Positions 1-10,256 of a DNA stretch of 10,256 bases are shown in pieces. Source of the DNA: Promethearchaeota archaeon (GTDB taxonomy: Archaea; Asgardarchaeota; Lokiarchaeia; Sigyniarchaeales; SOKP01); contig JAHLWS010000001.1 of NCBI GenBank assembly GCA_019057795.1, forward strand, positions 1 to 10,256, written 5' to 3'. Position 1 is the first letter of the stretch, and each line of letters opens with the position of its first letter. The notes beneath the pieces were generated by a model. The model saw nothing but the letters and a program-made list of their open reading frames with translations. It searched no databases and was not told the DNA's origin. Made by a program: the position numbers and the translations under genes.

Positions 1-402
1 ACCGAATACACCTAAATTTCTACCACTAAACACAGTAAGTAAGAAGCTAGCCAAAAAAAGTATACTGGATGATATAATTATTAACTTTTTATTTTTGGAA
101 TACCTATCAAATAAATATCCTAAAATTGGTCCTGAGAACATAACGAGATAAACAAATACTTGGATGAATGCTAATTGGCTTCTATCAACATTCAAAGTAT
201 TTAATAAATAGACCGGAAGATATATTACTAAATAGATTCTTATGACGCTAATGGCAAAATACAGAAAGAAGAACCCTATATAGTTTGATCTCTTAATATT
301 TCCTTTTTCTCTTTGCTTAAAGAACCTATAATTCCACTTATACTTAAACTCTGATATTTCAACCGATTTATTAGCTGTTGCCCTATCTTTATTATTAAAC
401 AT
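1..402 (-). CDS. MFS transporter, N-terminal part (runs off the left edge; not in the ORF track)
   Basis: Manual translation from ATG at 402 gives 134 uninterrupted codons: MFNNKDRATANKSVEISEFKYKWNYRFFKQREKGNIKRSNYIGFFFLYFAISVIRIYLVIYLPVYLLNTLNVDRSQLAFIQVFVYLVMFSGPILGYLFDRYSKNKKLIIISSSILFLASFLLTVFSGRNLGVFG. It has successive hydrophobic helices and an MFS motif-A-like loop (GYLFDRYSKNKK) after TM2. An SD-like GCGGTTGA lies upstream. Confidence 0.85.
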   Translation of the reverse strand, partial: MFNNKDRATANKSVEISEFKYKWNYRFFKQREKGNIKRSNYIGFFFLYFAISVIRIYLVIYLPVYLLNTLNVDRSQLAFIQVFVYLVMFSGPILGYLFDRYSKNKKLIIISSSILFLASFLLTVFSGRNLGVFG

Positions 403-576
403 CTTCAAAATTCAACCGCGAAAAATTATTCAGTTTTTATATTCAATAATTTTGTTCTTAAACTTAAAAACTACACAGTAAATAATTTTATGATGTTTTA
501 GAAAGCTATAATAATCAGCAAAAGAAAATTATTGATATTTATCCTTACTGAGCCAGATATCTTCCATCATACTTAC

Positions 577-606
577 AAAAAAAAAAGGGAAAAATATGGT
601 TTTCCC
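577..606 (-). terminator. Hairpin plus U-tract terminator
   Basis: Minus-strand RNA GGGAAAA-CCAUAU-UUUUCCC is a perfect 7-bp stem with a 6-nt loop (606-587), followed immediately by U10 (586-577). Confidence 0.75.
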
Positions 607-641
607 GCATTTCGGATTTTTTAATAATCCAAGCGGGAGAA
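600..641 (-). promoter_or_regulatory. Candidate antiterminator hairpin overlapping the terminator's 5' arm
   Basis: UUCUCCCGC (641-633) pairs with GCGGGAAAA (608-600) at 8 of 9 positions. UUGGAUU (632-626) pairs with AAUCCGA (618-612). The 3' arm includes GGGAAAA, which the terminator stem also needs. Confidence 0.55.
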
Positions 642-645
642 TCGT

Positions 646-675
646 TTAGGGTGTAGTATCACAAGTTGCAGGCAT
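646..675 (-). CDS. Putative leader peptide MPATCDTTP (9 aa)
   Basis: ATG CCT GCA ACT TGT GAT ACT ACA CCC TAA. A strong SD GAGGT (688-684) sits 8 nt before the ATG, and a TATA box TTTATATA at 729-722 is correctly spaced to transcribe it. Confidence 0.55.
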   Translation of the reverse strand: MPATCDTTP

Positions 676-721
676 TTTAGCTTACCTCAGCTTATTTTAA
701 TAAAATTTAAATTGATTATTG

Positions 722-729
722 TATATAAA
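722..729 (-). promoter_or_regulatory. Archaeal TATA box for the leader transcript
   Basis: TTTATATA on the minus strand. It predicts a start site near 700, just upstream of the SD at 688-684. Confidence 0.55.
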
Positions 730-867
730 CCCGCTATCCTCAACCAACGAGCTCACAATATTTTATTTATAAATAAATATAAAAACATAGAGAAAAAAGT
801 AAAAGATAAGCTTGGATTTTTATACTAAAAAAACCGATTAATCATTAAATCTAAAATTTTATGGCAT

Positions 868-884
868 GAAAAAGTATTTAAGTA
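868..884 (+). promoter_or_regulatory. BRE plus TATA promoter of the 1204-aa gene
   Basis: Purine-rich GAAAAAG (868-874) followed by TTTAAGTA (877-884), about 50 nt before the ATG at 935. Confidence 0.55.
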
Positions 885-934
885 GTTATGTAAATTCATA
901 ATTCTAACCCGTATTTATCTATAAAATTGAATAT

Positions 935-3900
935 ATGGCAAAATTAAATATCGATTTTTTGATAAAAACTCGAATCAAAAATATCCTAGAAAAGATTGAC
1001 TACTTTTTTCGTGAACTTCTTCGAGAAATTGAATCCTATCTCAATATTGAAGTAATTTACCCTAAAATAAACATTATTTTAAAAAATGAAGAATCAATCA
1101 TTTCAGCTGCGGCTGATAACATATTTTCAATAGGAGTTGATAGATCTTATCATAATGATATTCTCAGTATTAAAATATATTCAGATTTTTTTCAATACAT
1201 CCAATTTATTATACTTCGGGAAGCGTATAAATGCTTTATTCCTCTTTTCGCCAATCAAATGAAAACAATTGAAATTTTCATAAATCAAAAAGTATTAATC
1301 GATCTTAAAAAAATAAAATCTTGCAATGAATGGAACCAGCTCATACGGGATAAACTGGTTAATTATGAGTTCATTTCGGGTGAGTTAGATCGTTTAGAGA
1401 ATTTTTTGAAACGTGAAAGTACTGAGAACATTGATTCTCCCTTTATCTTTTTCTTTAAATATATTAGAAAAAATATCCAAATCATAGGTGAAAAAGAACA
1501 AAATTTTTACGACACATTTTTCAAAGAATTTTTATTAGTTTCCTCAAAATCATTATTCAATGATGAAATAATAGAAACAATAAGAGTTCTTGATAAAATC
1601 TTCAACCAGGTAAAATATTATTCTGCATTGTTAGACTATCAAGATTATTTTACCTTATTTAAAGAAAAAGGAGTGATTGAAACTAATCTTAGTCTAAACA
1701 AATTTACTGAAAACATGCAATGGATTAAAAATTTTAGTTATTTATCTCCGAGTTATAAAGTAAACTGGCCATCATTAAATATACTCTCAATAAATTGCTG
1801 CATTAAATTCAACCCGATTATAAAGAGATCAGAAATACTCAAAATCATTAATGAGCTACCCTTTTTTGTTCTTCTTAAGGAATCCAGAAATAGTTTCGGA
1901 TTCGAAATTGAAGGATATTTTGTAATACCAAAAATTTATTTTGATGATTTAAAGATTTATCTTGAGAAGTTTAGAGATTATGGATATACTCTTCAAATTA
2001 AGTTAGGTATTCTTGAAAATGTTGAAACTTTAGTTAACTTAAATTATTTTCGAGAATATCATGATAGAAAAACTATTGTTAATAGAAATCACAAGTTCTA
2101 TGAGAGTAAATATGAATTGGATTTTTCGATTGCATATGGTAAAGAAGTTATTATGCCTAGTTTGTCACTTCTCGATTGGTTAATAATTGATAGAATTCGT
2201 TACTTTTCACAAACTGGATTTAATTTCGAAAGAAGAGCTGGAGCTCTTAAGTTGTTAAAGACTGATCTTATTAACGAGATTATAAGTCAAAGGAAATTTA
2301 TTACTGATTTAAAAACAAATTTGTTAACCATTCATTCCTCGTTAAAACTCAAGAACAATTTTCTAGAGTTTTTAAAAACAAATGAATCCTTTGGATTCTT
2401 TTACATTAAAAATATACTTAATGATTACATCATTACTTTTAACGTAATTAAAGATATTTTAAATAAAAATCCTTCTATCAACAGCGTCTTCAAATTTCGT
2501 GAACATTTTATAAGACAAGGAATATCAAATTCAATCGAAAATAACATTACCTTTAAAAATTCAATTAAAAAGGCGATTTTTAACCAATTCTTACCATTAT
2601 ATTTTAAATCAAAGGAGAATTTTGAGGATGAAATTAACAAATATACCAGCTTTTTTAAAGTAATTAGCTCTTGTTGCGATTTGAAGATCTCCAATCTTCA
2701 ATCAATTCACATGATTGTAAAAAACAGATCTTTGATAAACACTATTTATAAATCTAAGGAAGATAAATTACTGAGTTCATATGAGAGCTATGAAAAATCC
2801 GATCTAACATATCAAATAATTGAGGAAAAGCTAGATTATTACCTAAATAGCAAACCACCTGTAATTAAACCAAATTTATTCGCAACTATATTAGTTTCAA
2901 TGGTTCAAATTTTTATTGTTTTATTAAAAAATAACGAGGAAACTTTAGAAAATCTTAATAAAATATCTTTTATATCAAAGAGAATGTCGATTAGTTCTGG
3001 AGATATACTAAATGTAGTATTATTAATTCCAAACTTAAGTAGCAGTGAAAAGGGGACATTTATTTCATTATTGATTAATCTTTTTAAAGAAAATCTGATT
3101 AGTGTTAAAAGATATTTGTGGAGCTATTTTCAACAGGCGTTTTCAAGGAAAGATTTTTATGATTTAGAAAAAAAAGAATTTTTTTATCAAAAAGATCTTT
3201 TTGAGCAATTTTTCCTAAATGTGAGAAGCATTCTTGGTGAAGTGCAAAAATCTCTTCCAGAAATCCAAAGAATGGCGCAGAAACGATTTTGGTCTGAAGA
3301 GAAAGATGTTTCTTACTTGATTAAAGAGGTAGAAGATCGAGTACGAAACGAAACTATAGATTTAAGCTCAGAAAATCTACGAAAATTATTCGAATTTCAT
3401 AATCTATTAAGCAAAAACATACTAAACATTGAAGAGTTTAAAAAATCCCAAGAAAAGATTTTTTTTAAAAATTGCATCAATTCAATCGATTTCATACCGT
3501 CATTTCAAAACTTTGGGATAAGCCAGTATTTCTTATATTTTTATCCTACAGATATTGAAAACATTAATTTTAAGCTGCTATTAAATAACTCATTCCAATC
3601 AATTAGCTATCCCGCACAGATCGATAATTCTAATTCATTTTTGGTTCAATTTATTTATCCGTATCGCAATCCGGGTATATCGCCATATATAAATTGGCTG
3701 ACCAAGTCGAAAAAAATCATCAGAGAATATTGCTTATTTTTCATTAAGAAGTTCTATCAAATTTTGCATTTCGATTACAACCTGAGCTCTGAAGGTTGGG
3801 ATCTTGACCCAAATCGGTTTAAGATATATTTCCAAAATGTATTGTTTAACCCTGATTATAAAGTCCAAATTCCTGATTTAAAGGAGTTCAATATTGGTGA

Positions 3901-4549
3901 TTTAAACAGTTCAAATTATCTAGGACCCAATTCCTCTGAATTTAAAGCGCTATCTCAAATATTTAACTGGAAATCATTGGATATTAAATCTTACTTAACC
4001 AGGCGTTATTTTAAGATAAATAAAAGTATAGTGGAATTGTTAAAGAAAGGATTAATTCAACCCTTTATTTCTTTAAAGAATTTAGATTTAGTGGAAGAGA
4101 TTACTATCATTTTACCAGATGTTAAAAAAGAACTTAACGAGTCAATTCTTAAGATTTTTAGCTTTTTCAACATCGGGTTCACCTATGAATTGGAAGGAGA
4201 ATATTACATTCATGGATTTGAGGATATAATAAAGTTCGAGAACGGCATAATGATTAAACTATATTTCCCCGATTGCCAAATAGATGAATTCGAGAAACTT
4301 TTCGATTTGCTTTTTGAATACATGAAAATTGACCACTATCTAATCTTAAACGATTTAGTTGACGGGGAGAATTTAATAAAATCTACATTCAATGGATTGA
4401 AATTTTTAGAGACATATAATCCTTTAACCAACCTTATTTGGAACGATAAAGACAAGAGATGGCGGAACCATAAATTATTTAACGAGAATTTTGAACCGGT
4501 TTATCCTGATTTGCTCTTTGGAAAAAATAATTACGATTTAGATTCATAA
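935..4549 (+). CDS. Large soluble hypothetical protein (1204 aa), probably a multi-module Lrp/AsnC-like (wHTH + RAM/ACT-like) regulator with a degenerate zincin-like N-terminus
   Basis: Long ORF with its own promoter and no TM segments. Lrp/AsnC-like linker motifs recur: SPSYKVNWPSLN (~aa271), FIPSFQNFG (~aa853) and LLKKGLIQPFISLKNLDL (~aa1035), each followed by alternating beta/alpha patterns. LSLLDWLII (~aa410) resembles an AsnC helix-1 start. ILREAY (~aa93) resembles a degenerate HExxH helix. The CDS is secure; the domain assignment is by eye. Confidence 0.6.
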   Translation: MAKLNIDFLIKTRIKNILEKIDYFFRELLREIESYLNIEVIYPKINIILKNEESIISAAADNIFSIGVDRSYHNDILSIKIYSDFFQYIQFIILREAYKCFIPLFANQMKTIEIFINQKVLIDLKKIKSCNEWNQLIRDKLVNYEFISGELDRLENFLKRESTENIDSPFIFFFKYIRKNIQIIGEKEQNFYDTFFKEFLLVSSKSLFNDEIIETIRVLDKIFNQVKYYSALLDYQDYFTLFKEKGVIETNLSLNKFTENMQWIKNFSYLSPSYKVNWPSLNILSINCCIKFNPIIKRSEILKIINELPFFVLLKESRNSFGFEIEGYFVIPKIYFDDLKIYLEKFRDYGYTLQIKLGILENVETLVNLNYFREYHDRKTIVNRNHKFYESKYELDFSIAYGKEVIMPSLSLLDWLIIDRIRYFSQTGFNFERRAGALKLLKTDLINEIISQRKFITDLKTNLLTIHSSLKLKNNFLEFLKTNESFGFFYIKNILNDYIITFNVIKDILNKNPSINSVFKFREHFIRQGISNSIENNITFKNSIKKAIFNQFLPLYFKSKENFEDEINKYTSFFKVISSCCDLKISNLQSIHMIVKNRSLINTIYKSKEDKLLSSYESYEKSDLTYQIIEEKLDYYLNSKPPVIKPNLFATILVSMVQIFIVLLKNNEETLENLNKISFISKRMSISSGDILNVVLLIPNLSSSEKGTFISLLINLFKENLISVKRYLWSYFQQAFSRKDFYDLEKKEFFYQKDLFEQFFLNVRSILGEVQKSLPEIQRMAQKRFWSEEKDVSYLIKEVEDRVRNETIDLSSENLRKLFEFHNLLSKNILNIEEFKKSQEKIFFKNCINSIDFIPSFQNFGISQYFLYFYPTDIENINFKLLLNNSFQSISYPAQIDNSNSFLVQFIYPYRNPGISPYINWLTKSKKIIREYCLFFIKKFYQILHFDYNLSSEGWDLDPNRFKIYFQNVLFNPDYKVQIPDLKEFNIGDLNSSNYLGPNSSEFKALSQIFNWKSLDIKSYLTRRYFKINKSIVELLKKGLIQPFISLKNLDLVEEITIILPDVKKELNESILKIFSFFNIGFTYELEGEYYIHGFEDIIKFENGIMIKLYFPDCQIDEFEKLFDLLFEYMKIDHYLILNDLVDGENLIKSTFNGLKFLETYNPLTNLIWNDKDKRWRNHKLFNENFEPVYPDLLFGKNNYDLDS

Positions 4550-4616
4550 TTTTCCATGTTAATATTTGGTTTTGTTCGTAAACACTGAGACAAACTTGTA
4601 AAGGGTAATAAAAACT

Positions 4617-4650
4617 AAAATATCAAAAATAATAAATCAGTTGATATTTT
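4617..4650. promoter_or_regulatory. Perfect 10-bp inverted repeat, candidate operator
   Basis: AAAATATCAA (4617-4626), a 14-nt spacer, then TTGATATTTT (4641-4650), ending 11 nt before the acdA-like start codon. Confidence 0.45.
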
Positions 4651-4661
4651 TTCTTAAATGA

Positions 4662-6116
4662 ATGGTAGTTAAAGATCTCGATTTTGAAAAGTTCGAAACT
4701 TTGTTTCATCCAATTAATATCGCGTTTATTGGAGCTAGCGAGAAATCTGCTTTTGGAGCAATGTTGTATTTATCAGCGTTTAAAACTTCGAAATGGAAAG
4801 ACACATTCTTCCCTGTAAATCCAAAATATGATAAAGTCCTCGATTGGAAATGTTATAATTCAGTCTTAGATATTCCGTATCCTATAGATACTGCTTATAT
4901 TTCTGTTAAAACTAAATACATTCCCCAAGTTTTAAAAGAGTGCGTAGAGAAGGATGTTCCATGGGTAATTATTTTCTCATCTGGTTTTTCTGAAACGGGA
5001 GATCCAGCGGGATTAAAATTAGAAAAAGAATTAAAGCAAATTTTATTAAAATCCAATACCAGAGTTATAGGTCCGAATTGTATAGGACCTTATAACGCAG
5101 CTGAAGGTATGGCATTTTCGTTCAGCGCCAAAAAGAATACTCCTGGGCAAGTCTCGTTCATGTCTCAATCTGGGGGGCATATGAGCCAGTTATTAGATGT
5201 AGGGTATAAAAGGGATATAAGGTTTAGGTACGGGGTGTCATTTGGTAATCAAATAGACCTGAATTGCATTGATTTTCTGAAATATTATCACAAGGATTCC
5301 ACAACTCACGTAATCGCAGCCTACTTAGAGTCATTCGGGTCCGCTACGGGCCACGAATTCTTTTTAGAGCTGAAAAAAAACACAAAAAACAAACCAGTTA
5401 TTATATGGAAAGGAGGTTATACTGACGATGGCTCGAGAGCAGCGTTTTCCCACACTGGTGCCATAGTAAGTGATTTAAGGTTATGGCATTCAATGGCCAA
5501 GCAAACCGGTGCAACTATAGTTAGAGATAACGAAGAATTTTGGAATGCTATTAAGACATTTGAATTATTATTTCCAAAATATGTCCCTCAAGGTAGAAAT
5601 GTAGGAATAATTACTCCTGGTGGCGGATCTAGCGTGAATACAACTGATCTGTTCAATTTTCATAATTTAAAAATTCCGGAATTAACTTTAGATTCCCAAA
5701 AGAAAATTAGCGAAATACTTCCATATGAAAACGTAAATGTGAAGAATCCTGTGGATTTAGGAGCCCTTGGCTTTGTCGTAGAGATATTCGTAAATTGTAT
5801 TGAGATTGTAGTAAACGATCCAAACATTGATATTATAGTAATTCCGCTATGGCCTCATTTTATCTATAATCATGTTTTCAAGCAGATGATTAAAATCCAG
5901 AAATCAACAAAGAAACCATTTATGTTTTGTTTACCAAGCATTGCTGACTCATCGGAACTTGCCCAACGATTTTCAACAGTTAAAAAAATACTTCATGAAG
6001 AGCGAGTACTCTACTTTCTATCATTAAGAGACGCAGCAAAAAGCTTATCACTTTATTGTGATTATGTCGAATATTTAAACTCACACAAAAATGAAATTTT
6101 GGATAAAGAAGAATGA
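4662..6116 (+). CDS. acdA: Acetate/acyl-CoA ligase (ADP-forming) alpha subunit, CoA-binding protein
   Basis: NDP-forming acyl-CoA synthetase alpha motifs appear in order: IAFIGAS, PVNP, IIFSSGFSETG, IGPNCIG, SQSGG, VSFGNQ, YLE, KGG, SHTGA (catalytic phospho-His, aa264) and NPVDLG. There is no fused ATP-grasp beta domain. Substrate specificity is unknown. Confidence 0.9.
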   Translation: MVVKDLDFEKFETLFHPINIAFIGASEKSAFGAMLYLSAFKTSKWKDTFFPVNPKYDKVLDWKCYNSVLDIPYPIDTAYISVKTKYIPQVLKECVEKDVPWVIIFSSGFSETGDPAGLKLEKELKQILLKSNTRVIGPNCIGPYNAAEGMAFSFSAKKNTPGQVSFMSQSGGHMSQLLDVGYKRDIRFRYGVSFGNQIDLNCIDFLKYYHKDSTTHVIAAYLESFGSATGHEFFLELKKNTKNKPVIIWKGGYTDDGSRAAFSHTGAIVSDLRLWHSMAKQTGATIVRDNEEFWNAIKTFELLFPKYVPQGRNVGIITPGGGSSVNTTDLFNFHNLKIPELTLDSQKKISEILPYENVNVKNPVDLGALGFVVEIFVNCIEIVVNDPNIDIIVIPLWPHFIYNHVFKQMIKIQKSTKKPFMFCLPSIADSSELAQRFSTVKKILHEERVLYFLSLRDAAKSLSLYCDYVEYLNSHKNEILDKEE

Positions 6117-6121
6117 TATTA

Positions 6122-6403
6122 TTACTCTTTTTTCATTATTTCTCTTAAGTAGAGTTTCATAAAATATCTTTCAATACTACAATAATCTAATTTTTGATTA
6201 TTCGTTAATTCTTTATTGTTTAACAAGAAAAAGTGGACATCTATGATTTTTCCATAAAATTTTTTCAATTTGTTGACAAATTCTTGTTGTTTTAAGTGAA
6301 ATAAGTCTTTTTTTTCAAAAACTGGCAGATTAGATAAATAATTTGCTTCAGTAATATCAAAGGATTCTATAGAATAATTGAAATTAGCTTTTCCTGAACT
6401 CAA
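6122..6403 (-). CDS. Small hypothetical protein (93 aa, TTG start)
   Basis: ORF converges on acdA with a 5-nt gap. An SD-like AGTGAT precedes the TTG. No recognisable motif. Confidence 0.6.
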   Translation of the reverse strand: MSSGKANFNYSIESFDITEANYLSNLPVFEKKDLFHLKQQEFVNKLKKFYGKIIDVHFFLLNNKELTNNQKLDYCSIERYFMKLYLREIMKKE

Positions 6404-6709
6404 TTTTTATCACTTAGAATTTTAAAATAATATAATTAAACTCCATTGTTTTTGAAACTGTAGTGCTGTTTTAATTTTGTCGGTAATCTGCAATAATACC
6501 TACTAAATTGTCTATTTTTGAGTGTAATTAGGGTTATAATCTCAATTTTGTATATACTATTGTTTTCCGTATATTAAACTTAGAGCGAATTATGTGTTAA
6601 GGGGTTAATAAAGAGAAACTAAAACCTAAAATGAGTGTAAAAGTAATATTTAAAATAAATTGAATAAATTATCTAATAATTATCTCAATAATAAATTGTG
6701 TGAAAATCA

Positions 6710-7729
6710 ATGGGTTTTATTTCTGGACTGAAAGGATTGTTTAAAAAACCAATTTTTGTATTTATTATAAGCCTATTTACAATTACTTGGATTTTGATAA
6801 TAATTAATAGTTATTTGCTTATTCCAGCGATTAGATCGTTTATATTCATGTTCGGAGGAGGTTTATTATTATTTAATTTAATTTTTTTATTTATTTCCTT
6901 ATTTAAAAATCTTGATAAAATAAATAAATGGTTTTACATAATCATTTATATAGTTGCGATAGCTTTAGCTATATTTTTCTATGCTTCAATTTTTTCTCCC
7001 ACATCTAATTTAGCCTTTCTAATTCTCCTTAATGTTAATATATTTTTTACAGCTTTCTTCGCCTTCAAATTATGTATGGATTCATCTACTAATATCGATG
7101 ATTATTTGTATAAAAGTAAGAGCTCTCGTAAAGTGACTCGAGTAATTGAATTTTTTGTTTTTGGTTTTTTAGTCTTATGGTTTTTTAGATTGACCGTAAT
7201 TTTTTTCAGTTATACTCCTCTACCAATATTCCTTGTTGTAATTCAGATTTTACAAACATTGTTTTGGATAAACGTAGTTTTAATGATAATTGTCCTAATT
7301 CGCTTGATTATAACAAAGAAATTATCAGCATATGTTACTTTATTTTTTCTGTTTACTTTCTTCTACGCACTATATATCCTTTTTGATTTATTATATGGAA
7401 TATTTTTTAGCACAGCAACTGGAGACCCAACTCATGTTATCATTTCGTTTGTAATAGATGCTGCATTATTTTTATACATCCTAGGCACTGTCTATGATAA
7501 AATTGATTATCTTCAAGACAAAATAAAGATTTTTCGAGTTGATACAATTGCTTTATTTCTAATAACTATGAAGATTTATGTGCAGGTTTCAAGAATCGGG
7601 GCAATTCTTGTTCCAGTAGATGTACAAATCTTACAAGCCCAAGTGTTATTTATTATCTTCGTATTTTTTAATTTATTATTTGGAATGTATTCAATTCTCG
7701 TGCATAAAAGCAAAAAGAGTAAACGATAA
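6710..7729 (+). CDS. Polytopic membrane protein of unknown function (339 aa, about 10 TM segments)
   Basis: Continuous series of hydrophobic segments, a basic C-terminal tail (HKSKKSKR) and an SD-like GTGTGA before the ATG. Confidence 0.85.
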   Translation: MGFISGLKGLFKKPIFVFIISLFTITWILIIINSYLLIPAIRSFIFMFGGGLLLFNLIFLFISLFKNLDKINKWFYIIIYIVAIALAIFFYASIFSPTSNLAFLILLNVNIFFTAFFAFKLCMDSSTNIDDYLYKSKSSRKVTRVIEFFVFGFLVLWFFRLTVIFFSYTPLPIFLVVIQILQTLFWINVVLMIIVLIRLIITKKLSAYVTLFFLFTFFYALYILFDLLYGIFFSTATGDPTHVIISFVIDAALFLYILGTVYDKIDYLQDKIKIFRVDTIALFLITMKIYVQVSRIGAILVPVDVQILQAQVLFIIFVFFNLLFGMYSILVHKSKKSKR

Positions 7730-7769
7730 AGAGGAAATATTAAATTTATTAATTTTTTATCTTATATTT

Positions 7770-7825
7770 TTGAATTAAAATATCAACTATAGGTTTTGAT
7801 ATATTCAATTAAAAGGAAAAAAAAA
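7770..7825. terminator. Convergent-gene terminator region (AT-rich inverted repeat plus minus-strand U9)
   Basis: TTGAAT-taaa-ATATCAA-N9-TTGATAT-ATTCAA inverted repeat (7770-7808). The A9 run at 7817-7825 is a U-tract about 21 nt after the stop of the 172-aa gene. Confidence 0.45.
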
Positions 7826-7846
7826 TTTATTTAATGCATCTCTTCT

Positions 7847-8365
7847 TTAATACATTTCTTCTTTAGTAAATAGTAAACTGAAGCAACCGTAGAATACGCC
7901 GTTTACAGCTCCGCTCATCAAAAAGAAGATTAACACTACGATTGGATCTGCTACAAGGATACCATAATACAATAAGGTTGCTGGATTTATGAAGGCTAAT
8001 ACTCCCAAAGCTACAGCACTTATTATAGCCGTAATCATCCACCCGCCAAAACTTCCCCCTTTTTTCTCTCCGGTTCGTCCTGCGATTATTGCTGCAACAA
8101 AGGGAGAAATAATGAATCCAATGCTTTGAATTAGCGAAGAACCAATCATTCCCGAGGAAACTTGAAGATAAATAGAACTAAAAACAGACCCTGGCATACT
8201 AATAATGGGTCCGAAAAAAATCAGCAATATGATTAATGGATTATTTCCAATATCGCTAAAAAGAATGTTTAAATTACCACTAATAGTTTCAGTTATTATT
8301 ACAAACAGAAAATTTAGACCTATTAACGCAAGCAAACTAAATCCTAGAGCTTTACCTAATCCCAT
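7847..8365 (-). CDS. Gly-rich membrane protein of unknown function (172 aa, about 4-5 TM segments)
   Basis: Hydrophobic helices with small-residue motifs and a Gly-rich loop AAIIAGRTGEKKGGSFGGW. Confidence 0.85.
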   Translation of the reverse strand: MGLGKALGFSLLALIGLNFLFVIITETISGNLNILFSDIGNNPLIILLIFFGPIISMPGSVFSSIYLQVSSGMIGSSLIQSIGFIISPFVAAIIAGRTGEKKGGSFGGWMITAIISAVALGVLAFINPATLLYYGILVADPIVVLIFFLMSGAVNGVFYGCFSLLFTKEEMY

Positions 8366-8558
8366 ATTTGTCAGACTCTTATTTTCAAATTATATAACTT
8401 AATTAATTTACTTCTTTATGTATAAAATAGATTGTAATTGCTATTTAAATTTATTTAACTTAAAACATAATGATATAACAACATAAAATTTTTAATAATT
8501 CATGGGTTACAAACCAAAATTAGAATTTTATTAAAACTTGACATCTCACGTCAATTTT

Positions 8559-8906
8559 TTAAATATTATCAAAATTTAGCATTTCTTGTAATTGTCTTAA
8601 AGTTTGTATGTAATCTTGAGCTTGTCTTTCTCCTAAATCTAAGAAATCCCACATCCATTTGGGCACATCTTTTACACTTAAATGAGCTAATAGTAAATTA
8701 AAACTTTTTGGAGCACTAAATCTCTTATGTCTTGGTTTTTCTTTTACAAATTCAATAAAATCTTCTTTATTATTAAACTGTTTGTAAGTTTTATGAAACG
8801 TAATAAATTCTGCCAACCATATAAGTTTTCTAAGGCATAGAGTCCTAATATTTCCACATCTAATTTTATCCATATCAGTAAAATACTTATCTATTTCTTT
8901 ACTCAT
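8559..8906 (-). CDS. Hypothetical protein with a possible C-terminal HTH (115 aa from ATG 8906)
   Basis: ATG at 8906 follows an AAGGA-type SD and is preferred to the track's TTG at 8915. The C-terminal VKDVPKWMWDFLDLGERQAQDYIQTL resembles a turn plus recognition helix. Confidence 0.7.
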   Translation of the reverse strand: MSKEIDKYFTDMDKIRCGNIRTLCLRKLIWLAEFITFHKTYKQFNNKEDFIEFVKEKPRHKRFSAPKSFNLLLAHLSVKDVPKWMWDFLDLGERQAQDYIQTLRQLQEMLNFDNI

Positions 8907-8933
8907 TTTAATCAATTTCCTTATTTGTTTTTT

Positions 8934-9152
8934 TTATTTCAATTTTATTTCATTTCCACATTTTTCACAGATTATTGTTGTTTTAGGTTTTATAGGAATT
9001 TTATAAATTTCTATTATTTTTTCAATAAACTCGTCTGGATCTTCAGTTAGAAATACAGTGTTATGATACCAAGCGTTAATAAGTTCATAACGTACATTTT
9101 TGGTTATAGGATCTTTTTTTACGTGTATTTGGCAACATTTTGCTAAGTTCAT
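8934..9152 (-). CDS. Small Cys-motif (putative zinc-binding) protein, 72 aa
   Basis: C-terminal CEKCG knuckle and N-terminal CCQIH. SD-like GCGTGA before the ATG, and tight spacing with co-oriented neighbours. Confidence 0.7.
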   Translation of the reverse strand: MNLAKCCQIHVKKDPITKNVRYELINAWYHNTVFLTEDPDEFIEKIIEIYKIPIKPKTTIICEKCGNEIKLK

Positions 9153-9201
9153 TTTTTATCACGCTCATTTTTTTAATTTAAAAAGGTTAAGTGTTAGTAA
9201 C

Positions 9202-9540
9202 TTAACCGTTTATTTTTGGTAACTGTAAAATGGTTTTATAATCAAAACTTAACCCTTTGGCAAGTTTTAAACCCTTTTCAGTTAAAATAATCCATTTCTG
9301 TCTTTTATCATAATCATCAATTCTTAAATCTATTAACCCACGATCCTTTAATCTTTTAATACTTCTACTAAAACTACTCTCAAAAGAAGATGTTTGAAGA
9401 TAAAATGCAGGACCAGCCCAATCTTTAGGTACATATATATATTTCCCTAATTTTTCTTTAATAAATGAATATTTCATATCGCACTTACTCCAAGCTAAAA
9501 CAATTAATATTAGTTTTTGATACTTACTCAATTTATTCAT
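9202..9540 (-). CDS. MarR-like winged-helix DNA-binding protein, 112 aa
   Basis: LSKYQKLILIVL (helix 1), FSRSIKRLKDRGLI (recognition helix) and DDYDKRQKWIILTEKG (wing with DxR and LTxKG, typical of MarR). SD AGGAGA at 9557-9552. Confidence 0.8.
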   Translation of the reverse strand: MNKLSKYQKLILIVLAWSKCDMKYSFIKEKLGKYIYVPKDWAGPAFYLQTSSFESSFSRSIKRLKDRGLIDLRIDDYDKRQKWIILTEKGLKLAKGLSFDYKTILQLPKING

Positions 9541-9562
9541 TTTTCAATCAATCTCCTATTTT

Positions 9563-9642
9563 AAAAAAAAGGAGGGAAAGGATTAGGTTGACACGTTGGG
9601 GAGAGTGATCCCTAACCAAGTATCTTTTAAATCCTTCCCCAT
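9563..9642 (-). ncRNA. Putative ~80-nt structured RNA or cis-leader ending in U8
   Basis: GC-rich island folding as one long hairpin: GGGGAAGGAUU/AAUCCUUUCCC (11 bp), a 5x5 internal loop, GAUAC/GUGUC, UUGG/CCAA, GGGA/UCUC and a UCAC loop, followed by UCC-U8. Four G-U pairs form only on the minus strand if the 11-bp stem, GAUAC/GUGUC and GGGA/UCUC are counted with their wobble positions (at least three are unambiguous). Confidence 0.6.
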
Positions 9643-9668
9643 GTTTAATTAACCTATCGTTTTCCCAT

Positions 9669-9682
9669 AATTTAAGGTTTAT
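9669..9682 (-). promoter_or_regulatory. Candidate TATA-like promoter for the structured RNA and three-gene cassette
   Basis: Minus strand ATAAACCTTAAATT. It would place the start site near 9648-9642, at the 5' foot of the hairpin. Confidence 0.4.
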
Positions 9683-9755
9683 TGATCGTTTTTTTTTCAA
9701 GTTCTAATCTCCTTTATTTTATGTTTTATGGGAGAAATTTTTGATTTAAGATTAG

Positions 9756-10256
9756 TCATTCAATTTCAAAACGAGCAAAGGGTCTCCACTTTCTTTTTTT
9801 GCCAATTCTGTACATTATATAACCACCAATTGCATAAAAAGTAAGGAGGAGGAGGAGATTAATTCTCCCCCTTATTACCGCATCGCCAATCAAAATTCGT
9901 AAGGGAGCCCAAGGAGCTTGAATAAGTAAATAACCAATAATAAACCACATGATACCACCGAGACCAAATATACCGAAACTTACTAAGATTATTCCAGTAA
10001 TGAGCTTCAAGAGTTTAAGATTTCTAATACGTTTAAGATAATATGTAAAAAGAAAAAAAGCTAAGCCCAAGATTGTTGAAAAGATAACGCGTCCTAAATC
10101 CAAAATCCCGACAAAAAATAACCCCCAATAATTCATCATCCACATTACATAAGCTCCAATATAAACATAAACCCAGTTTTTATTAAGATTCTTCCCGAAA
10201 ATTTTGATTTTTTCTTTCAAGTTCCTTTTATTTGAATTTTCTTTCAATTCATTCAC
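9756..10256 (-). CDS. Membrane protein of unknown function (at least 166 aa; start may lie beyond the window)
   Basis: Four to five hydrophobic segments flanked by basic stretches. The GTG start coincides with the last base of the window, so the true start is uncertain. Confidence 0.8.
   Translation of the reverse strand: MNELKENSNKRNLKEKIKIFGKNLNKNWVYVYIGAYVMWMMNYWGLFFVGILDLGRVIFSTILGLAFFLFTYYLKRIRNLKLLKLITGIILVSFGIFGLGGIMWFIIGYLLIQAPWAPLRILIGDAVIRGRINLLLLLTFYAIGGYIMYRIGKKRKWRPFARFEIE

Follow-up and report, generated by a model that had tools for sequence, protein, structure and literature searches.

The stretch analysed here (the window) is 10,256 nucleotides (nt) long, has a G+C content of 26% and comes from the metagenome-assembled genome of a Promethearchaeota archaeon, a Loki-type Asgard (contig JAHLWS010000001.1, positions 1 to 10,256). 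On its minus strand, between a truncated gene for a transporter of the major facilitator superfamily (MFS) and the divergent gene for a 1204-aa protein, lies a compact unit made up of a TATA-like box, a Shine-Dalgarno (SD) motif, a nine-codon open reading frame (ORF), a hairpin that we call P1 and a U-rich tract. A first-pass annotation, made from the letters of the sequence, read this unit as a leader-peptide attenuator of the transporter gene. Every element that it listed is found where it was placed, including the TATA-like box, the SD motif GAGGT and the ORF MPATCDTTP, and the ORF proves to be conserved at the codon level. After comparing the unit with its relatives, however, we think it probable that positions 729-577 (minus strand), possibly starting from 785, form a complete stand-alone translated mini-gene with its own 3′ end and not an attenuator of the MFS gene. 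The features of the unit are as follows.

752-785, minus strand: distal T/A-rich box TTTTTATATTTATTTATAAATAAAATATTGTGAG, kept in alignments both beside the 1204-aa gene and behind DUF7064 genes
724-757, minus strand: upstream inverted repeat (P0), seen in the fold, overlapping the proximal TATA-like box
722-729, minus strand: proximal TATA-like box TTTATATA, 47 nt before the ATG
684-688, minus strand: SD motif GAGGU, 8 nt before the ATG
646-675, minus strand: nine-codon ORF MPATCDTTP (ATG at 675, TAA stop at 648-646), with codon-level conservation
603-638, minus strand: hairpin P1, seen in the minimum-free-energy fold and by covariation
587-606, minus strand: alternative 7-bp hairpin GGGAAAA/UUUUCCC, which can form in the window copy
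577-594, minus strand: two-part U-tract U5-CCC-U10 (U10 at 586-577), a layout found in 27 copies

Copies of the unit and the nine-codon ORF

A DNA search recovers a 190-nt stretch at 72-86% identity in related genomes, mostly as two copies per genome. The alignment shows, in order, an invariant AGGT, ATGCC, a frame-preserving ORF, TTCTCCCGC, a variable helix, GCGGGAAAACCATATTTT and a C-interrupted T-run. A covariance model, R1, was built from 15 sequences with the window copy included. It finds strong copies in 20 of the 42 genomes of one Promethearchaeota genus, with at most five per genome, and almost no matches among 109 genomes from the order's other genera; the window copy, itself one of the 15 building sequences, reaches 116 bits with R1. 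The SD motif and a frame of 8-10 codons, M-P-[G]...P-stop, are kept in about 50 distinct copies. The window copy fits this M-P-(G)...P family of mini-genes, in which an SD motif and a short M-P...P-stop ORF are followed by a hairpin and a U-rich tail.

The AGGT of the SD motif is invariant in all 15 aligned copies and is complementary to the 3′ end of the 16S rRNA of this genome, GGAUCACCUCCU. SD-like motifs precede 11% of long ORFs as against 2% in a control window, so that an SD motif can be taken as meaningful here. A TATA-like octamer (TTTATATA, TTTAAGTA, TTTAAATA or ATTTAAAT) occupies the same position in all aligned copies, and we infer that the proximal box serves as a promoter.

Codon statistics were gathered over 51 distinct ORFs. 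The usual length is nine codons (38 ORFs), with seven ORFs of eight codons and four of ten, and differences in length are always multiples of three. Codon 2 is CCN (third base T in 26, A in 22 and C in one), the CCN that forms the last sense codon occurs with every third base, and the stop is TAA in 48 cases. Entropy is highest at the third codon position (1.35 bits, against 0.96 at the first and 1.00 at the second). Four peptides are each encoded by sequences that differ only synonymously, by one to five changes, and one pair of ORFs with identical peptides differs by five synonymous changes over ten codons. In a set of 60 close pairs the ratio of nonsynonymous to synonymous divergence (pN/pS) is 0.66. 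The centre of the peptide drifts, while Pro2, Gly3, Gly/Asp6 and the last Pro are retained. The only fixed codons are the single Pro codons 2 and 9; those for Thr in the window copy vary among copies, and the peptide contains no run of codons for a sensed (regulatory) amino acid.

Because of the third-position variation, the held residues and the fixed length, the ORF is unlikely to be incidental. The pattern indicates that it is under codon-level selection, by which the frame and Pro2/Pro9 are kept. The coding signature alone would look the same whether the product were a functional peptide or an arrest peptide.

Hairpin P1, the alternative hairpin and the U-tract

P1 is the minimum-free-energy fold of positions 570-700 (-25.7 kcal/mol, z = -2.0). 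Its outer stem, UCCCGC/GCGGGA, pairs 638-633 with 608-603, and its inner stem, a variable helix, pairs 632-626 with 618-612. The first-pass annotation had drawn essentially the same pairing (641-626 with 618-600, its 2:3 structure), and the pairing is real: five of the seven inner pairs show compensatory changes, 83.5% of the alignment cells are paired as against 75.5% in shuffles and about 50% in slid-partner controls, and 37 cells carry double changes where 12.9 are expected, a number that 0 of 500 shuffles reach. The covariance-model alignment mis-registers about 13 of its 29 rows, so these counts are conservative; MAFFT and RNAalifold on their own recover only the outer stem, the inner helix occupying two registers. 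P1 energies run from -16 to -23.5 kcal/mol in most copies, with a few degenerate copies at about -1.5 to -13.5. In every copy P1 begins 0-7 nt past the stop codon, and a terminating ribosome and P1 therefore cannot coexist.

The alternative hairpin, which had been proposed as the terminator (3:4), pairs GGGAAAA (606-600) with UUUUCCC (593-587) and is followed by U10. It is the sole terminator-like site in the first 1200 bases, where shuffles expect 0.3. It shares positions 606-603 with P1, and the claim that the two structures are mutually exclusive accordingly holds for the window copy; as a feature of the family it falls, since the terminator hairpin is not conserved. The two arms are 90% paired across copies as against 89% in shuffles, and 91% and 97% when the register is slid by -1 and -2, so that in these comparisons the hairpin has no register specificity and no covariation above shuffles. 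Its energy in the window, -7.7 kcal/mol, is the best among 30 copies; the median is about -4 and many copies lie at -1 to -2, values that are marginal. Copies with a co-oriented MFS gene do not differ from the others (mean about -3.9 against about -3.5 kcal/mol). The alternative hairpin is a purine run facing a pyrimidine run and not a conserved structure. The check for covariation in both stems, which had been suggested together with one for conservation of the SD motif and ORF, thus divides: P1 covaries and the alternative stem does not, while the SD motif and ORF are conserved.

The pyrimidine run, which mostly starts 4 nt after P1, is built in 27 copies as U3-7, a C-containing spacer of 1-5 nt and U6-10. 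Archaeal terminators are U-tracts, with two tracts of U4 or more giving the highest efficacy and a hairpin not strictly needed, and the termination factor aCPSF1 binds such tracts (PMC8716108). The U5-CCC-U10 of the window agrees with the published description of an archaeal U-tract terminator (at least one, better two, runs of at least four U; PMC8716108), and this two-part tract is likely to be the transcription terminator of the unit.

Neighbouring genes and more distant relatives

Four further features lie on either side of the unit.

541-576, minus strand: conserved block GTAAGTATGATGGAAGATATCTGGCTCAGTAAGGAT after the terminator, aligned in about 12 copies with different downstream genes
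452-476, minus strand: promoter-like box GTGTAGTTTTTAAGTTTAAGAAC of the MFS gene
1-408, minus strand: N-terminal part of the MFS transporter gene, cut by the contig end (Pfam MFS_1, E = 5e-10)
935-4549, plus strand: divergent gene for the 1204-aa protein, with ACT/RAM-like beta-alpha-beta-beta-alpha-beta modules

Gene context was counted over 31 strong copies. A homologous MFS gene (412-465 aa where full length) is the 3′ neighbour in 21 of them, co-oriented in 14 at 139-192 nt downstream and convergent in seven at 48-223 nt; the other ten have no downstream MFS gene and stand behind peptidase, hydrolase or DUF7064 genes. The 1204-aa gene is divergent upstream in 15 copies. The mini-gene thus accompanies homologous MFS genes and genes for ACT/RAM-repeat proteins of about 1,200 residues in either orientation, and the proposal that it attenuates a downstream MFS gene is not supported by these counts. 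Elsewhere the unit is flanked by a DUF7064/7065 gene on one side and a convergent gene without assigned function on the other, by an M29 peptidase gene with a convergent MFS gene opposite, or by genes for an alpha/beta hydrolase and a radical-SAM protein. Since it is found at unrelated loci, the unit is self-contained and portable.

The 5′ edge common to copies at unrelated loci is the distal box, beyond which the sequence differs. This TTTTTATAT/GTTTAAATAT box lies about 105 nt before the SD motif and delimits the portable unit. The conserved upstream region (724-785 in the window) is of two types (seen, e.g., in L040, L060 and L066). P0 may be a palindrome bound by protein or, provided that transcription begins at the distal box, an RNA hairpin. 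That it is a conserved RNA hairpin was rejected after C-A mismatches were found to break it in several type I copies. In type II the arms are ATCGC(N12)GCGAT just before the TATA-like box and show paired changes (e.g. ATCGTT/AACGAT); this inverted repeat could act as an operator.

At the other end of the unit, the 35-nt conserved block at 541-576, which begins GTAAGTATGATGGAAGATATCTGGC directly after the terminator, contains an 8-bp palindrome, AGATATCT. A second ORF after the terminator (MMEDIW...) was considered and rejected, neither its length nor its start being conserved.

The best conserved stretch of the spacer between mini-gene and MFS gene is the box TGTGTAGTTTATAAGTTTGAAAAC (476-452, minus strand; general form TGTGTAGTTT(A/T)TAAGTTTGAAAAC), which stands about 55 nt before the start codon in 14 of 14 co-oriented MFS genes. 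MFS genes at distant loci have similar GAGTTTATAAA boxes before them. The box is probably the TFB-recognition element (BRE) and TATA box of the transporter gene. The first-pass annotation had itself named transcription of the MFS gene from its own promoter as an outcome that would tell against attenuation; a conserved box is indeed present, and its use as a promoter is predicted.

The 1204-aa protein has no sequence match in Pfam (E up to 10), NCBIfam or the PDB. Atlas gives a weak HTH lead (score 0.80); domain and fold tests found ACT/RAM-like modules only and no HTH or TPR domain, the C-terminal third of the protein being poorly modelled. The structure model is good only for residues 1-770, and Foldseek with the full model returned only meaningless AcrB rows (TM 0.07). 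The module at residues 655-730 (beta-alpha-beta-beta-alpha-beta) matches ACT/RAM folds with Z of 8-9.2, in what is a generic and common fold. The protein contains several such modules. Members of its family keep a constant length of about 1,200 aa. Within this archaeal family, 106 of the 131 genomes encode them, as one to four paralogues each, whereas the 19 genomes searched from other families have none. High-identity orthologues occur only in genomes that carry a strong element.

More distant homologues of the 1204-aa protein, at 35-47% identity, also adjoin a mini-gene and an MFS gene. The peptides encoded beside them are MNPGLAGGPPRY, (I)PGNDAICPRY, MPAGVGDG and MPYGGENGG; one genome has the mini-gene inverted, with the peptide MPGSADVIPL, and two loci of another genus encode MPCTITPPSA and MPGSFGEPPTK. 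At the last two a short hairpin (e.g. UCCGC-UCU-GCGGA) directly follows the stop and is followed by a U-run. The outer stem of P1 looks homologous to this UCCGC-loop-GCGGA hairpin, with a helix inserted into its loop. Because of that resemblance, P1 is better seen as the gene's own 3′-end hairpin than as an antiterminator.

R1 hits at 28-57 bits form a wider family with the same SD motif, the frame ATG CCN GGN ... CCN TAA, a simpler hairpin and a ATATTTTTCYYTTTTTT tail, often in tandem arrays and behind DUF885-like peptidase genes. As R1 was built from MFS-linked copies, its retrieval of peptidase-linked ones is independent support for the family. The weaker members lie just 3′ of (in one case convergent with) genes of a family of about 400 aa that has an HETYPGHH motif and a weak DUF885 match. 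This genome holds four copies of the peptidase type and two that are MFS-linked, where a reversed-genome control gives one hit. The two groups have in common the SD motif, the M-P-(G)...P-stop frame, the hairpin and the tail. They differ in that the window copy and 30 close relatives have a two-tier hairpin, neighbours of the MFS and 1,200-residue kinds and, at position 5 of the peptide, often Cys, Ala or His. The MFS-linked subfamily pairs with the MFS and 1204-aa genes and not with the metallopeptidase; a Pfam scan of all window ORFs found no gene for a DUF885-like HExxPGHH metallopeptidase.

Three loci deserve mention. At L086 (G012:C44) a mini-gene encoding MPGHNQIFP lies between a gene for pyrroline-5-carboxylate reductase, an enzyme of proline synthesis, and a DUF885-like gene, a setting that is curious because of the conserved prolines. 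A second contig of this genome (C21:1284-1505; L009/L062) holds another whole unit with the 5′ part of an MFS gene, 99% identical to the window, with a DUF7064 gene upstream. Since both contigs stop within the MFS gene, the C21 copy could be a genuine duplication, a strain variant or a break in the assembly at a repeat. At L052 (G048:C11:29561-29789) and L045, a second, degenerate P1-like unit lies immediately 3′ of a strong copy. Before it come GGAGG and a longer ORF reading across the hairpin, which makes the locus a tandem array of diverged units.

The probable mini-gene and its alternatives

As a mini-gene, the unit would work as follows. Transcription would begin about 25 nt after the proximal TATA-like box and end in the U-tract, which would terminate as in other archaea, giving an RNA of about 120 nt. 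P1 would protect or stabilise this very short message at its 3′ end; every terminating ribosome would have to melt the hairpin, which would refold after each round of translation. The product would be a short peptide that, after removal of the Met, carries Pro at both ends and would thereby resist exopeptidases. The neighbouring transporter may handle this peptide, as an exported signal or a peptide precursor, while the MFS gene would be transcribed mainly from its own promoter.

Several observations weigh against this reading. Selection on the central residues is weak, as the pN/pS of 0.66 shows, and translation itself or arrest of the nascent chain could be what matters. A translation-coupled switch, too, would need the tight distance from stop to hairpin that the family maintains. 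In two thirds of the MFS-linked copies the MFS gene is co-oriented, and among the copies that of the window has the most stable alternative hairpin. The start site, 3′ end, translation and read-through are all inferred.

The closest documented design is that of the microcin C operon of E. coli and H. pylori, whose 7-codon gene mccA has a ribosome-controlled terminator immediately behind the ORF and a transcript of 105-107 nt, which is abundant and stable through ribosome binding; an MFS pump is encoded in the same cluster (PMC4231749). Like mccA, the mini-gene has a tiny ORF behind a strong SD motif, a structured spacer and terminator directly after it, a predicted RNA in the range of 100-120 nt and an MFS pump gene nearby, and an interplay of ribosome and RNA structure is plausible here too. 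Unlike mccA, it has no gene for an MccB-like adenylating enzyme near it (the only domains that Pfam assigns to ORFs of the window are MFS, CoA-ligase and MarR-like), and its peptide ends in Pro and not Asn. It also has an archaeal U-tract terminator, a transporter gene of variable orientation with its own promoter box, and neighbours that are either the 1,200-residue ACT/RAM-repeat protein or peptidases.

With the trp, his, thr, pheA and pheST attenuators the unit shares a short ORF whose stop lies beside a hairpin, overlapping pairings (in the window copy) and a U-run. It departs from them in having no run of sensed codons, no conserved second hairpin, a downstream gene that varies in identity and orientation and has its own promoter box, and a peptide whose sequence is conserved. 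The leaderless communication peptides of the RopB/Rgg systems of Firmicutes (PMC10518010) offer another parallel: a peptide of about eight residues is encoded at its final length by a gene that adjoins, and diverges from, that of a large partner, and the peptides diversify between lineages. Here, however, the 1204-aa partner shows ACT/RAM-like modules only, with no HTH or TPR domain in the tests, the peptide is small, polar and Pro-capped where the bacterial ones are hydrophobic, an MFS transporter replaces ABC/Opp, and the host is an archaeon.

Two alternatives give the ribosome control over what lies downstream. If the unit were a ribosome-dependent attenuator of the MFS gene, P1 would be the antiterminator and GGGAAAA/UUUUCCC with U10 the terminator; a ribosome at the stop would melt P1 and free the terminator, and without translation there would be read-through. 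All the elements are present and mutually exclusive in the window copy, the distance from stop to P1 is short in every copy, 14 copies have a same-strand MFS gene 139-192 nt downstream, and the same logic is at work in mccA, where ribosome binding unmasks the terminator (PMC4231749). We nevertheless find this explanation quite unlikely. Its terminator hairpin lacks both a conserved register and covariation and is of marginal stability in the majority of copies, and archaeal termination needs a U-tract and not a hairpin (PMC8716108), so that P1 should not prevent it. Moreover, seven of the 21 MFS neighbours are convergent, one mini-gene is inverted, ten strong copies have no downstream MFS gene, a conserved promoter box stands between terminator and MFS gene, and the ORF lacks a run of regulatory codons. 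An mccA-like hybrid, in which ribosome occupancy of the tiny ORF tunes U-tract termination and the lifetime of the short RNA and so yields a high ratio of peptide message to read-through, would suit the architecture (SD motif, tiny ORF, structured spacer, terminator and a nearby MFS pump), an RNA of about 120 nt predicted here against 105-107 nt for mccA (PMC4231749), and a stop that abuts the hairpin in every copy. It too is unlikely, given that archaeal termination has no known hairpin dependence, that the window has no MccB-like enzyme and that a convergent downstream gene leaves nothing to read into.

The other two alternatives concern the ORF itself. The mini-gene could be an arrest-peptide sensor, whose M-P start and P-stop end (with P-P near the end in distant relatives) would make translation dependent on aIF5A, proline or a release factor, the output being the stalled ribosome. 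Pro-stop and Pro-Pro are established stalling contexts; the residues conserved most strongly are Pro2 and the final Pro, for which all synonymous codons are in use, and in distant relatives PP stands two to three residues ahead of the stop codon. Yet other relatives end in DG or GG and lack the motif, Gly3 and Gly/Asp6 are conserved as well, and no conserved target lies downstream in cis, all of which makes such a sensor improbable in our judgement. Least credible of all is a non-coding small RNA with an incidental ORF: the stable covarying hairpin with its terminator would suit it, and no Rfam match names the RNA otherwise, but it would have to account for three-base periodicity, a fixed ORF length, insertions and deletions in threes, an SD motif at fixed spacing and a conserved TAA, and we give it almost no credence.

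Should the unit be a stand-alone mini-gene, as we prefer, these mini-genes would rank among the shortest conserved protein-coding genes known, in a lineage of the archaea closest to eukaryotes. Each has its own promoter-like box, SD motif, covarying 3′ hairpin and terminator, with a transporter, a giant protein or peptidases for neighbours. Standard gene callers miss such genes entirely, and the family makes a small, concrete target for RNA mapping and peptidomics in cultured relatives. A peptide circuit based on these 8-10 codon genes, with a Pro-capped peptide exported by the MFS transporter and sensed or processed by the 1,200-residue protein, and with sister copies paired with dedicated peptidases, is a tentative idea that we hold to be possible but would not expect to be right. 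If true, it would be the archaeal equivalent of peptide signalling in bacteria or else a novel class of peptide natural products. Had the attenuator reading held, it would have been the first trp-type attenuation in archaea, which the evidence does not favour. A literature search found no report of leader-peptide attenuation in archaea, and none of micropeptide genes, peptide signalling or leader-peptide control in Asgard archaea.

Rfam at a permissive threshold and a tRNA scan gave no match over the whole window. Two further ideas for the unit, a C/D-box small RNA and anti-SD pairing, did not fit the sequence on inspection. Far from the unit, and unrelated to it, positions 8934-9540 (minus strand) hold a MarR/winged-helix-like ORF of 112 aa together with several small ORFs that belong to no family.

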